From a plasmid, in sequence record NZ_CP106960.1: 64,000 nt of DNA. One strand, given 5' to 3'. This document shows, piece after piece, positions 48,001 to 64,000 of the stretch. A program made the position numbers. The first letter of the stretch is position 1, and each line of letters begins with the position of its first letter.

Positions 48001-51000
48001 GCCGGGATGACCTTCCTGTTCATCGCCGCGTTGCGGATAAATGCCGAAACGCTTTGCCCTGCCTGCTCTGCTTCCCGCTCAATCTGTTCTATTTCTTCGG
48101 GCGTAAATCTCAGGGTTTTGATAACGGTTTTCTGCCGTTTTTCACTGCCCCTTCGGGATGCTCTGTCGCTCATGCGTGCTCCTTACTCGGGTGTCGGGGC
48201 GGAGCCCTGACCAGGTGGCATTTGTAATATCGTGCGTGCGCGGTATTACAAATGCACATCCTGTCCCGTTTTCAAAGCCATTATACGCCTAACCGGTGTT
48301 TTCGCCTAGCGTCGATTTGACGGCATGGGCAGTGCGGAGCACTGCCACTTTCTTTCAGCTAATGGTATGATTTGAATGTAAATTTGCGCATCAGTATGTG
48401 AAAGGAAAAAAACGATATGGCAGATAAGAAATGGTTCACAAGTGAAGACGTGGAACTGGCAAAAACGGCGCTGGATGAGCTGCCTGATTTGACCGAAAAA
48501 CGGCTGACGAAATCCGACGTTCTGGACAAGCTGAAAGACCAGATAATTTTGCTTTCAGGCAGCAAAGGTTATTCTGTCGAGGATATCCGTTCGGCTCTGG
48601 ACGGTGTGGGGATCCAGACCAGTGTTAAAGCCATACGCGAAATTTTAAGTGCGCAAAAGAAACAAACAGTAGCCACGGGGGGTTCCCGTCGCAGGACCAC
48701 GAAAAATCCCGCTCAGGCTCCGGTGACAGAAGGCAAGTAAGCCATCAGGGAGAATTATCTTGTGGACGGAAGGGATTCAGTCACCACGGAAAGTGGTGGG
48801 ATAATTCCGGCAGATGGAGTTCCGGCACTGTCAGGTTCAGTACCTGTTTGTGCCGACAGGAAGGAAATAAAATGGCGGAGATGATCCCCGCCATTCATCA
48901 ATCAGGATTTCAGGGCTTTCATCATTTCAGCCATTCCCCATAACGCACGGTTCAGCTTCACATCCCCATCAATACCCGTCACGGCGCGCGTACGCTGGCG
49001 ACGCCCCTGCGCAGATTTCCCCAGCAACCCGCCTTTCGTCATATTCTCCTGAACGCGTTGATACGTCGTCCACAAATCATCTGCTTTGTCCTCATGACGA
49101 CGGACGGTCAGCACATCAGAAGTTGCCAGCGGAATATGCTTTCCTTCCGCGTTTTCATCATAGCGCCACCCTAACGCGGTCTGCGCAAAAATCTCCTGCT
49201 CATCACGCGACAGCACGGTATCTTTCATAATTTCGCGTGACTCTGTGATGCTGTCGAAAACATCCAGAACCTCGTAAGCGCCTTCAATGACCTGACCGAC
49301 AACGTCACCTTTGTGCGGGACACGGATTTCCCCGAACGTCTGGCCGCATACCATCCCGTTAGTACAGACGAAACGAAACATCCCCGGGATCATCTGATAG
49401 CTGCTGCTGCCATCGTGGCTGTTGAGCAGAATGATTTCCGGCACCTCTGCGCCTGCGATCTGCCCGGCACGGCGCAGACGCATCATGTGTTTGGTGTGAC
49501 CGCGCTTCCCTTCATCACGCGTGCGGGTCTGGCAGGCAAAGAACGGTAGGAAACCTTCTTCACGCAGCTTATCCAGAACGGTGATGGTTGGAATGTAGGT
49601 GTAACGTTCGCTACGTGAATCATGCTTGTCCTCTGAAAAAATGCTCGGGACAACGTGCATTAGCTCGTCATTGGTCAGTGCGCGCTCTTTACGGATGACG
49701 TTCATGGATGAAAAACGGGATGCTAAACGGGTCATATCAATCTCCTCACATGTCACAAAAAAATCATTTCTGCCGTCGCCTTTTTGATGATGTATCACCA
49801 TCGCGGGAGGCCGTTTCCGTGATAAAGCGATCGCCCTGACCGTTCAGGAGACGATGCAAGGAGGCAATGCGAGGCCGCAGCGCAAGCGACCAGAGGGAGT
49901 GCGAACGGGTGAGAAGTGCGTACTTGCATCGTTTCCGGGTCAGGGCAGAGTCTTTCACGGGAAGAGGCAGCACGCGGTGAGCACCGGCGTCAAAAGGATG
50001 ATGCGGAAATTTCCCGGCGGGCGCCGCCCGACCCGGAACCGCCTGGCGGGTCCGGGTCGGGCGGCGCTGCCGGAACGGCAGCTGCAAGCCCGGGCGCCAG
50101 TGGTGAAGCATTACGCCCGGACAGACCTGTCTGCAATTACCAGTCAAAAACCGGTGCGTTTTCCACTTCATCCCCCAGACCGGAGAAATGGATCATGCTG
50201 ATATCCGCCCGGCGAATGGCGCTGAAAATTAAAGCCCGCGCTTCGCGGGAAAGGCCCAGTTTTTTCAGGCGGAGTAAGGGTCTGGCGACAGCTTCCAGGC
50301 GAATGAGGTATCCCACATCCGTATCCATAATCCACCACCCTTCATGCTTCGTACGGCTCAAACCCTGCAACAAAAGATTGTCAGCTTCTGTCAGATGGTT
50401 AGCGCAGCATTCCATTACCGGGCGCAACATCATACCCGGCAGGGTGAGGGAATTACCCCAGCCCAGTGAATCAGTGATGTCATTCCATGACCATTTTTCA
50501 GTATCAGGTACGGGCAGCGCCAGTAACTGAAAAGGCACGCCCATTTTCTCCGCCATAAGCAGCCCTGTGCCGATCACGGCATCATCACGTTCCCCGATAT
50601 CGCAGCTGGCAATACGTTCGCCATCGAGAAAAATAGCCTCATCACCGTTATCAAGCTGAATACCTGTCACTCCGCGCGGAGCGTTCTGCAAGTAGCGTTT
50701 ACGCAACATTTGTTTATCCCGTCAGAAGTTCAGAAGCCGCCCCTTTACGGGGCGGCGGTTATCAGGCGCAGGCTCTGGATAATTCCAGTGACCGCAGAAG
50801 ATGTCCCAGTTCTGTGCAACTCATGGCCGGAATACGCACCGGCTGATGACGGCGCTCTGCTCGTGCAACAATCTTGCCCCATACTTTAGGACGGCGGGCG
50901 ATCGCCTCCGCAGGCACGGTTTCGTGGCGCTTGCGCGGATGACTGTTACGCCGGTTATTTACAAAATACTCGCGACATGCGAGGATGAATTGGTCTTTCA

Positions 51001-63000: not shown

Positions 63001-64000
63001 ATCTGCCGCCCTGGCGCGGCATAAAAAGCGGAGCAAGCGACGTCTTTCATAAGGCACCAAATTTGAGATACTGCATCATAGCGGTGCCTGTTATGTATAT
63101 ATTTTTTGGTAAGAAACTTGTTATAGTCGGTAGACTGTAGTGAAATTTTTGTTCAACCTTCTGAAGTTTTTTCTTATTATCATTCCTAATGCAGATATAT
63201 TATTAATTAACAGGATTTTTTATGGCCGGAAGAGAAGATGGTTTAAAGGCACTTTTTGACACGCGATTTATAAGCGCTTGCAGCTACTTTAAAGGCATGG
63301 AAGTTAGAATGCCACTGAATGGGCTAGATCAATTTTTTAATGCGGACACTTTATTTTCAACATTCGATAAATTTTTCATAGTTGAATTTAAATCTTATCA
63401 ATCCAGCCTGAATGCAGAAAGAAAGAAGCCTACGGCTTGCCAAATTTGTTGCGACTTACCTGTTAGCCCTACAATAATACCTTTACATGATGCCTGTCAC
63501 TTTGCTATGTGGGGGAATATAGAAGAGACTTTGCTCTACGGAAATTACGACATATACAGAAAATGCGTCTGCAATTCATCTGTATTACCTACGTGCCGAG
63601 GGGCTGCGCAGTCCATGTTTTCACCAAACCCTAAACATTACGATGTTCTTGCCAGATTAGCAGGGCGAAACAACGCAGGATTAAATGCAGATGACTTTCT
63701 GATTTATCTTGAATGGCTACTTGGCAGGAGAGGAGGAAGTGGCGAAGGTCGTGGAGATTTCAATGCAGCAATATATGCGACATCAACTACTCATGCTGTT
63801 AATGGAGTTCCGTTCAAAAGCATGGCTAGCCTACAACGGTGGTCGAAGGGGGTTCGCCCAGGCAAACGGAATGATGACTGGGATAGCTTCAGTTTTTAGA
63901 TAATATTCATTTTATGACGATCTGGGTAATGACTCCAACTTACTGATAGTGTTTTATGTTCAGATAATGCCCGATGACCTTGTCATGCAGCTCCACCGAT

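Follow-up and report, generated by a model that had tools for sequence, protein, structure and literature searches.

Seven hairpin-headed gene modules in the leading region of a Leclercia conjugative plasmid, with candidate single-stranded DNA promoters

The transfer origin and the layout of genes and hairpins

We analysed a 64,000-nucleotide (nt) stretch of the plasmid sequence record NZ_CP106960.1 (hereafter the window) and describe here its final part, 48.3–64 kb, in which short operons and long imperfect hairpins alternate downstream of an origin of transfer (oriT). The oriT core lies on the + strand at 48220–48270 and consists of an inverted repeat (48220–48252) followed by the nick region GCACATCCTG/TCCCG, where the slash marks the nick; repeat and nick region both fall inside the gap at 48174–48416. 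The nick motif ATCCTG occupies 48258–48263 on the + strand, 3′ of the inverted repeat, and the predicted nick falls between 48263 and 48264 (ATCCTG/T). The nick of R64 is reported to have been mapped experimentally (Furuya and Komano 1991). From 48178 to 48290 the sequence is 87% identical to the R64 oriT, with an identical nick core, and the string ATCCTG[TC]CC has a single occurrence in the window. Immediately adjoining oriT on its left are a NikA-like gene and the gene for an 899-amino-acid (aa) relaxase. Because the motif is on the + strand and 3′ of the repeat, with the relaxase on the opposite side, the + strand from 48264 onward would be the first DNA to enter a recipient. The likeness to the R64 oriT and its nick core supports the proposal, made in an earlier note on this DNA, that the + strand enters 5′ to 3′ from a nick at 48263 and that the minus-strand genes are read from the entering strand. 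On sequence grounds we assign 48.3–64 kb to the leading region of an R64/IncI-type (NikA/NikB, MOBP) conjugative plasmid from Leclercia. Over 48–64 kb the window shares 97.9% identity with plasmid p707804-1FII of Leclercia adecarboxylata and is syntenic, at 77–81% identity, with plasmids of Lelliottia, Enterobacter and Citrobacter; the replicon type of the closest record is IncFII.

The minus strand carries 18 of the 21 protein genes between 48.3 and 64 kb, as well as sok, which bears out the earlier observation that nearly all genes downstream of oriT lie on that strand. According to the gene calls, the exceptions on the + strand are a mobC-like gene (48417–48740), a gene for an XRE-type helix-turn-helix (HTH) protein (51737–52015) and an open reading frame (ORF) at 63222–63899. 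The minus-strand genes form seven modules, which we letter A to G with increasing distance from oriT. Module A is a single gene for a 277-aa, YubP-like DUF932 protein (48902–49735; Pfam DUF932, E = 2e-54, and the annotation of the closest plasmid). Module B (50137–51001) holds hyp79 (50762–51001), a basic orphan, and the gene for a 190-aa DUF5983 protein (50137–50709), while module C (52035–53602) holds hyp119 (53243–53602), hyp84 (52904–53158) and a methyltransferase-like (MTase-like) gene of 276 codons (52035–52865). In module D (54834–58661), a DUF905/YfjA-like gene (58338–58661) and a HerB/YfjB homologue (56250–58265), both with Pfam matches, precede psiB (55783–56211) and psiA (55055–55786), likewise Pfam matches, and hyp76 (54834–55064). 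Module E (59273–60415) comprises ardA (59915–60415), hyp62 (59685–59873) and a homologue of the theta subunit of DNA polymerase III (59273–59527), with Pfam matches to ArdA and DNA_pol3_theta. The only gene of module F is hyp259 (60805–61584), a homologue of the 258-aa leading-region protein of the F plasmid and a match to PHROG 8919, and module G (61940–62739) consists of hyp155 (62272–62739) and hyp111 (61940–62275), whose start overlaps the hyp155 stop.

Between these minus-strand genes lie seven large gaps, at 49736–50136 (A), 51002–51736 (B), 53603–54429 (C), 58578–59272 (D), 60422–60804 (E), 61585–61939 (F) and 62785–63221 (G), each containing an imperfect hairpin of 246–341 nt whose base, in six of the seven, is ~25–40 nt from a start codon. 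Folded whole as single-stranded DNA (ssDNA), the + strands of gaps A, B, D and E give z scores of −5.9 to −7.8 against dinucleotide shuffles (−7.8 for gap A, −7.2 for gap B and −5.9 for the fold of the type found in C and D). A sliding fold of 260 nt over the whole window returned 21 outliers among 981 positions (GC-corrected z < −3), of which 17 fall in 48.3–64 kb on or directly beside the hairpins of gaps A–G and one more (48166–48425) spans oriT. Within the 64 kb the hairpin elements are confined to the leading region, and the G+C content of their cores is 58–63% compared with 54.6% for the region. The repeated hairpin-and-operon layout that the earlier note had described is thus real and far beyond chance. 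Two other strongly structured windows, at 716–1040 and 1496–1755 (z of −4.2 and −3.8), lie where NusG-like and sigma-like transfer regulators are encoded.

Folding the + strand instead of its complement makes each of the seven hairpin cores 6.6–16.9 kcal/mol more stable. For cores A, B, C and D the values are −57.0, −64.6, −86.5 and −89.8 kcal/mol on the + strand and −43.9, −58.0, −69.6 and −74.9 kcal/mol on the minus strand. Together with the covariation reported below, this bias supports folding of the + strand, that is, the transferred one. The relatives used for covariation were drawn from plasmid records, a PsiB-based scan of genome contigs having yielded 6 loci only, and for homology we compared the hairpins with Frpo and single-strand initiation (ssi) sequences, with the candidates of Samuel et al. 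and with the leading regions of F and R64.

Kinds of hairpin

The IncI1 plasmid pESBL carries six zygotically induced operons with ssDNA promoters of classes 1, 2 and 3, and homologues of classes 2 and 3 occur in F (NAR 2025, PMC12672017). Hairpins E (60445–60692), F (61607–61854) and G (62760–63007), all on the + strand, resemble one another closely: F is 99% identical to E, and G is 95–96% identical to both. Over ~130 nt they share 71–72% identity with R64 at 14982–15104 (ardA) and 21931–22053 (klcA) and with the F plasmid at 6489–6611 (klcA). The ardA and klcA hairpins are class 2 ssDNA promoters, the starts of which were mapped in pESBL by 5′ rapid amplification of cDNA ends (PMC12672017). 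Hairpin E likewise lies directly upstream of ardA, and F and G head orphan genes. By homology with the ardA and klcA hairpins of R64 and F, we class E, F and G as class 2 ssDNA promoter hairpins.

An alignment of 20 class 2 copies from eight plasmids showed that 95.9% of the cells are paired, compared with 30–41% when the partners are slid, and that 23 of 52 pairs are compensatory, a score that none of 500 shuffles reached. The 3′ arm reads CCTTGCAT, then a 15-nt spacer, then TAAAGT (TAAGAT, TATAGT or TACCGT in relatives), so that it bears a −35-like TTGCAT and a −10-like hexamer, at 60643–60648 and 60664–60669 in E, 61805–61810 and 61826–61831 in F, and 62957–62962 and 62978–62983 in G. The TTG and the A of the −35-like element, the TA...T of the −10-like element and the spacer of 15 nt are invariant throughout the 20 copies. 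Every base of TTGCAT is paired, and the middle three positions of the −10-like hexamer form A·C, A·A and A·G mismatches; this 3-nt bubble is kept in every one of the copies, and the pairs flanking it covary. In the window the pattern TTGCAT-N15-TAnnnT has three + strand occurrences, in E, F and G only, and none on the minus strand. In duplex form the same place in E reads TTGCAT-19-TGTCGT, and the −10 element is lost. From the geometry of the hairpins we predict transcription starts at template positions ~60461 for E, ~61623 for F and ~62776 for G, which would give leaders of 46 nt to ardA (ATG at 60415), 39 nt to hyp259 and 37 nt to hyp155.

Hairpins C (53625–53965) and D (58698–59038), again on the + strand, are of the Frpo/ssiD type. 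The base of C is ~25 nt from the start of hyp119 and a structured extension runs to ~54144; ~40 nt separate the base of D from the GTG with which the DUF905 gene starts, and a second structured block follows at 59039–59217. The two are 97% identical over 543 nt and share 70–73% identity over 340–500 nt with ssiD and both Frpo loci of the F plasmid, which hairpins A, B, E, F and G do not. In an alignment of 13 copies we counted 15 compensatory pairs. C and D are, by this homology with ssiD/Frpo, class 1 ssDNA promoter hairpins. Identical 56-aa ORFs with ATG starts are present on the minus strand at 53960–54130 and 59033–59203, in the duplicated structured block upstream of C and D, and a counterpart is annotated in a Lelliottia plasmid (L009, 14023–14214).

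Hairpin A (49765–50010, + strand) is short and class-2-like. It lies ~30 nt upstream of the DUF932 gene, is conserved in four relatives and carries in its 3′ arm TTGCAT (49924–49929), a 16-nt spacer and CAGAGT (49946–49951), the last of these inside an internal loop. A and the class 2 hairpins have the blocks GATGCAAGG...GCCGCAGCGCA...CGGGTGAG...CTTGCATC in common, and BLAST returned no match between A and the class 2 hairpins of F or R64. The apical core of A (GCCGCAGCGCAAGCGACC...GTGCGAACGGGTGAG; 49850–49915) is ~85% conserved in plasmids of Xanthomonas, Aeromonas and Serratia (L016, 7001–7064; L017, 7001–7069), where it sits within long hairpins, among strings of same-strand genes adjoining transfer genes, and where the flanks have wholly diverged. 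That the tip of A is more conserved than its promoter hexamers suggests a sequence-specific partner.

Hairpin B (51130–51410, + strand) is long and imperfect and has no homologue in F or R64. Across five relatives 20 of its 111 pairs are compensatory, and it is present in only 41 plasmid records of one lineage. We considered B as a class 3 element and rejected this, since it shows no similarity to the regions of R64 or F upstream of methylase operons; the R64 region compared for class 3 (25688–26080) finds its only matches in the 3′ arms of E and G (71–74 nt), and A and B do not match it. Among the sequences listed by Samuel et al., A and B are unmatched save for a 35-nt flank.

A small hairpin, GCGGCGC(T/A)GCCGGAACGGC(A/T)GCTGCAAGC, is found at 50060–50097, 51429–51466, 54019–54056 and 59092–59129, 3′ of hairpins A, B, C and D in terms of the + strand, hence on their far side, and F and R64 likewise have it next to their Frpo elements. 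As for the arrangement of the large hairpins, E, F and G are direct repeats ~1.15 kb apart with 95–99% identity, and 5 kb separates C from D, whose identity over 543 nt is 97%. In relatives the hairpin copies are far more diverged and whole modules are absent, the Lelliottia plasmid having no hyp111–hyp155 and Enterobacter cloacae pOP-I no DUF932 gene. It looks as if gene conversion, and the loss and gain of modules, use the promoter hairpins as joints.

Transcription from the entering strand and its alternatives

We think it likely that 48.3–64 kb is a leading region in which hairpins of the + strand serve as ssDNA promoters for the minus-strand operons. The + strand would be nicked after 48263, its 5′ end would enter the recipient first, and the sequence from 48264 onward would arrive as ssDNA. 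The seven inverted repeats would then fold into long imperfect hairpins that mimic duplex promoters, with the 3′ arm supplying the non-template −35 and −10 and the 5′ arm the template. Host RNA polymerase would leave the base of each hairpin toward lower coordinates and pass through a leader of 25–46 nt with a ribosome-binding site into the operon; ardA, for one, has the Shine-Dalgarno sequence GGAGG 6 nt ahead of its ATG. In E, F and G the −35 TTGCAT would be read in paired form and the −10 TAAAGT with its central A residues in the mismatch bubble. Synthesis of the complementary strand would convert this arrangement into TTGCAT-19-TGTCGT. Since only the folded single strand contains the −10 element, the promoter would be lost in the duplex, and the burst would therefore end on conversion to duplex DNA. 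Such a mechanism would provide ArdA, PsiB/PsiA, the HerB-like protein and other products in a brief burst ahead of double-strandedness.

Several observations weigh against this reading. The class 2 spacer of 15 nt is short for sigma-70, while the opposite arm has 19 nt, and the −10 of hairpin A (CAGAGT) is weak. In C and D we could not place −35 and −10 hexamers either by eye or from the alignments, and the case for class 1 rests on homology. For hairpin B, alignments and inspection by eye revealed no −35/−10 pair at usable spacing, a lone −35-like element being ~25 nt from any −10-like one, and the distance from B to its operon is 145 nt. Next to B is a conventional operator with its HTH gene, a unit from which the module B operon might be transcribed instead. 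The earlier note's claim that every operon stands behind an Frpo-like element therefore holds for modules C, D, E, F and G and is plausible for A, while B is without a recognisable −35/−10. The pairing data have limits of their own. G·T pairs exceed A·C pairs in three alignments (25:9, 62:4 and 43:14), a count biased by having been made on structures predicted from the + strand, and covariation is blind to whether the fold is one of DNA or of RNA.

That last point is one on which a different explanation could draw, namely that the inverted repeats act in RNA, as terminators or stabilisers of mRNA, or are repeats resembling repetitive extragenic palindromes (REP) or miniature inverted-repeat transposable elements (MITE), with the operons transcribed from duplex promoters. 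Read-through transcripts would carry the complementary hairpin, the copies in E, F and G (95–99%) and in C and D (97%) resemble dispersed repeats, and terminator-like sites are somewhat enriched (31 compared with 17.7 expected). However, with the genes on the minus strand, mRNA would be of minus-strand sense and no + sense RNA is expected, yet it is the + strand that gives the more stable fold in each of the seven cores. Nor is there a T-run after the stem on the minus strand, and a scan of the duplex for sigma-70 promoters found 11 sites where 9.6 were expected, none of them ahead of the operons except at hok/sok. Given also the homology of the hairpins to elements with mapped ssDNA start sites and their restriction to the leading region, we judge an explanation in terms of RNA elements or dispersed repeats to be very improbable.

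A closer competitor is that the hairpins mainly process DNA, either as ssi priming sites for synthesis of the complementary strand or as roadblocks that delay conversion to duplex. The first isolation of Frpo is reported to have been as a signal for single-strand initiation at which primer RNA is made (Masai and Arai 1997), and in F, complementary synthesis stalls where the stem of the promoter hairpin ssp2 ends (bioRxiv 2026.01.09.698686). Hairpin B, with structure and covariation and no promoter hexamers, would suit such a function, and priming or roadblock activity could be its main role; C and D have a second structured block upstream, and the small hairpin common to A–D also flanks the Frpo elements of F and R64. 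On the other hand, a roadblock needs no invariant −35/−10-like hexamers with a bubble, no fixed orientation and no distance of 25–40 nt to a start codon. A role in DNA processing is also compatible with promoter activity, as in F one element does both. We regard processing as the main function of the hairpins as possible though somewhat doubtful, and transcription from ssDNA, perhaps with an additional part as primer site or roadblock, as the better account of the set.

Early expression from Frpo has been described in F (Couturier et al. 2023), and leading-region anti-defence islands with Frpo-like promoters have been described by Samuel et al. (Nature 2024, PMC11541004). The region most resembles the IncI1 plasmids pESBL, R64 and ColIb-P9 (PMC12672017; Bates et al. 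1999), with which it shares the order nikB-nikA-oriT, a + strand gene and then minus-strand leading genes up to umuDC. Beyond the oriT at 87% identity, the likeness extends to class 2 hairpins upstream of ardA, to a DUF905–ParB-like–psiB–psiA block behind a class 1 hairpin and to an XRE HTH gene with a homologous operator. Unlike the IncI1 arrangement, the window has seven hairpins, not six, and contains neither ssb nor klcA; the MTase-like operon is behind class 1 hairpin C and not behind a class 3 element, class 2 is represented by three near-identical copies, two of which head orphan genes, and hairpin B is without counterpart in R64 or F. Compared with Frpo/ssiD of F (Masai and Arai 1997; Couturier et al. 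2023), hairpins C and D have the same covarying hairpin in the same orientation toward oriT, but short insertions and deletions distinguish the apical part, and C is followed by hyp119–hyp84–MTase-like where F has ssb. With the islands of Samuel et al. (PMC11541004) the region has in common genes oriented for the T-strand, ardA, psiB/psiA, an MTase-like gene, a toxin-antitoxin locus and a umuDC boundary, which in the closest plasmids is just past the end of the window. Among their candidates, Frpo*1 and Frpo′4 match E, F and G, and Frpo′1, 5 and 6 match C and D. DUF905, theta and DUF5983 are among the families that these authors found enriched in leading regions, whereas the families to which several of the present ORFs belong are very small and lineage-restricted.

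Such a modular layout with ssDNA promoters has thus already been described for F, ColIb-P9/R64 and pESBL, and the current picture of leading regions is unchanged. Local to this region are the three near-identical class 2 copies, the class 1 hairpin before the MTase-like operon, the previously undescribed hairpin B and the lineage-restricted orphans. The analysis provides a dissected layout of this kind outside F and IncI1, comprising seven modules with hairpins of three types or more, in plasmids of a Leclercia/Enterobacter/Citrobacter lineage for which human clinical samples are the source of many of the matching records. For class 2, the sequence alone can account for the switch-off in duplex form, and the exact predicted start sites make the proposal testable. 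The candidate early-expressed genes that lack an assigned function are narrowed to ~11, eight of them true orphans.

Cargo proteins and neighbouring features

The known cargo genes named in the earlier note, ardA, psiB/psiA and hok/sok, were confirmed by matches to Pfam ArdA, PsiB, PsiA and Hok and to Rfam sok (97.8 bits). Other identifications had to be amended. The gene described as a ParB-like nuclease does encode a ParB-like protein, of 671 aa and with a ParB HTH domain; this protein is 50% identical to YfjB of F over 666 aligned residues, that is, over its full length. YfjB was recently characterised as HerB, a CTP-binding reprogrammer of host expression (PMC13370423), and its homologue here is, as far as is known, neither a nuclease nor an anti-defence protein. 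The cargo as a whole is not all anti-defence, since besides this HerB/YfjB homologue it includes theta, DUF905 and hok/sok, which are establishment or stability genes.

The MTase-like protein has GQYFTP, an S-adenosylmethionine-binding (SAM-binding) motif I (DPACGSAG) and TGNTL, and its Pfam match is limited to profile positions 24–118 of 311. The NPPY/F motif IV and the remainder of the catalytic domain are missing, with LNNF, LNDF or ANDW at the expected position of the motif. In five of five relatives the protein ends ~40 aa past TGNTL, making this a conserved truncated form of 256–276 aa in five plasmids. We therefore rejected the protein as an N6-adenine (gamma class) methyltransferase, for which motif I without motif IV does not suffice. 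The methyltransferase likeness proposed earlier stands for motif I, while the protein is probably not catalytic and may instead bind SAM without catalysis or serve as an HsdM-like decoy.

About 11 genes are uncharacterised, eight without any Pfam family together with those for DUF932, DUF5983 and DUF905. All ten of the proteins that we looked up are named hypothetical or by a DUF in every source, and the orphan ORFs had no family, solved-structure or fold match, other libraries and searches likewise giving no functional match. Several belong to lineage-restricted families of 15–65 clusters, the hyp79 family having 15 clusters only. The earlier note had singled out as most promising an acidic ORF of 170 aa (62272–62784) and a paralogous pair at 50762 and 52904. 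The first is indeed acidic, but its 170-aa reading is unlikely, as it depends on a GTG inside hairpin G that precedes the predicted transcription start. Homologues of full length mostly have 155 aa, from the ATG at 62739, with 170-aa versions appearing only in some JGI gene calls, and the product, hyp155, is most likely 155 aa long. As for the pair, hyp79 and hyp84 are related, small and basic, with an isoelectric point (pI) of about 11, and what they have in common is a basic C-terminal stretch of 51 aa with 35% identity.

The hyp155 protein consists of two domains, each of which is also found alone as a small protein. Its N-terminal domain of ~75 aa (LxNGDxAxY...VPxxxxWxWND) is shared with the DUF5983 protein, at 38% identity over ~90 aligned residues, and its C-terminal domain carries the motif LCxGTFWLxDDFL...HDAxxGxNW. 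A structural model of hyp155 (predicted local distance difference test score, pLDDT, 83) matched nothing informative in PDB or BFVD. The pI values of hyp155 and hyp111 are 4.3–4.4, and that of ArdA is 4.05. We considered hyp155 as a DNA mimic of the ArdA type and rejected this, as neither support for an ArdA- or Ocr-like fold nor ArdA family membership was found.

An anti-defence role for the orphan ORFs is proposed from their context, following the argument of Samuel et al., and in islands of this kind there is a strong excess of anti-defence genes (PMC11541004). The acidity of hyp155 and hyp111, like that of ArdA, fits such a role. The orphans might equally be establishment or host-adaptation factors, or regulators, and we see little to choose for or against this: the largest protein of the region is a homologue of HerB/YfjB, which reprograms host transcription (PMC13370423) and is not an anti-defence protein, neighbours such as theta, DUF905 and hok/sok are not anti-defence genes, and the basic character of hyp79 and hyp84 is compatible with nucleic-acid binding. 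A joint proposition, that hairpin B represents a further class of ssDNA-active element and that at least one lineage-restricted orphan is a new anti-defence protein, we consider unlikely as a whole. The anti-defence candidates under it could be hyp155 with hyp111, hyp79/hyp84, hyp119, hyp259 and the MTase-like protein lacking motif IV, the last as a non-catalytic decoy or SAM binder.

Two conventional units are set among the modules. The hok/sok post-segregational killing locus on the minus strand (54430–54790; hok 54430–54588, Pfam HOK_GEF; sok RNA 54586–54753) had been listed with the cargo of the hairpin modules; the locus is there, but it has a sigma-70-like promoter of its own, TGGGCA-17-TATAAT at 54787–54759, and no hairpin at its head. 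On the + strand, 51635–52015 forms a control unit for duplex DNA, made up of an AT-rich inverted-repeat operator (51635–51707) and the XRE-type HTH gene, which is oriented such that the entering DNA cannot serve as its template. Its product matches HTH_31 with 22.8 bits, under the Pfam cutoff of 27 bits, and is annotated as an HTH/XRE regulator in relatives; in R64 a homologous operator adjoins the HTH gene.

An Rfam scan of 44–64 kb found only sok and a sub-threshold match to AS-pc01 (35 bits, E = 0.007). The latter coincides with a possible small antisense RNA on the + strand (53109–53242) across the start of hyp84, where a promoter-like site with a TG extension (53109–53137) and a terminator-like hairpin with a T-run (53219–53240) are also present. 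Finally, the closest plasmid contains, ~900 nt past the point corresponding to 64000 (L001, 20912–20964), a further apical core of the A type upstream of one more minus-strand gene and before umuDC, and because of this copy an eighth module probably lies beyond the end of the window.

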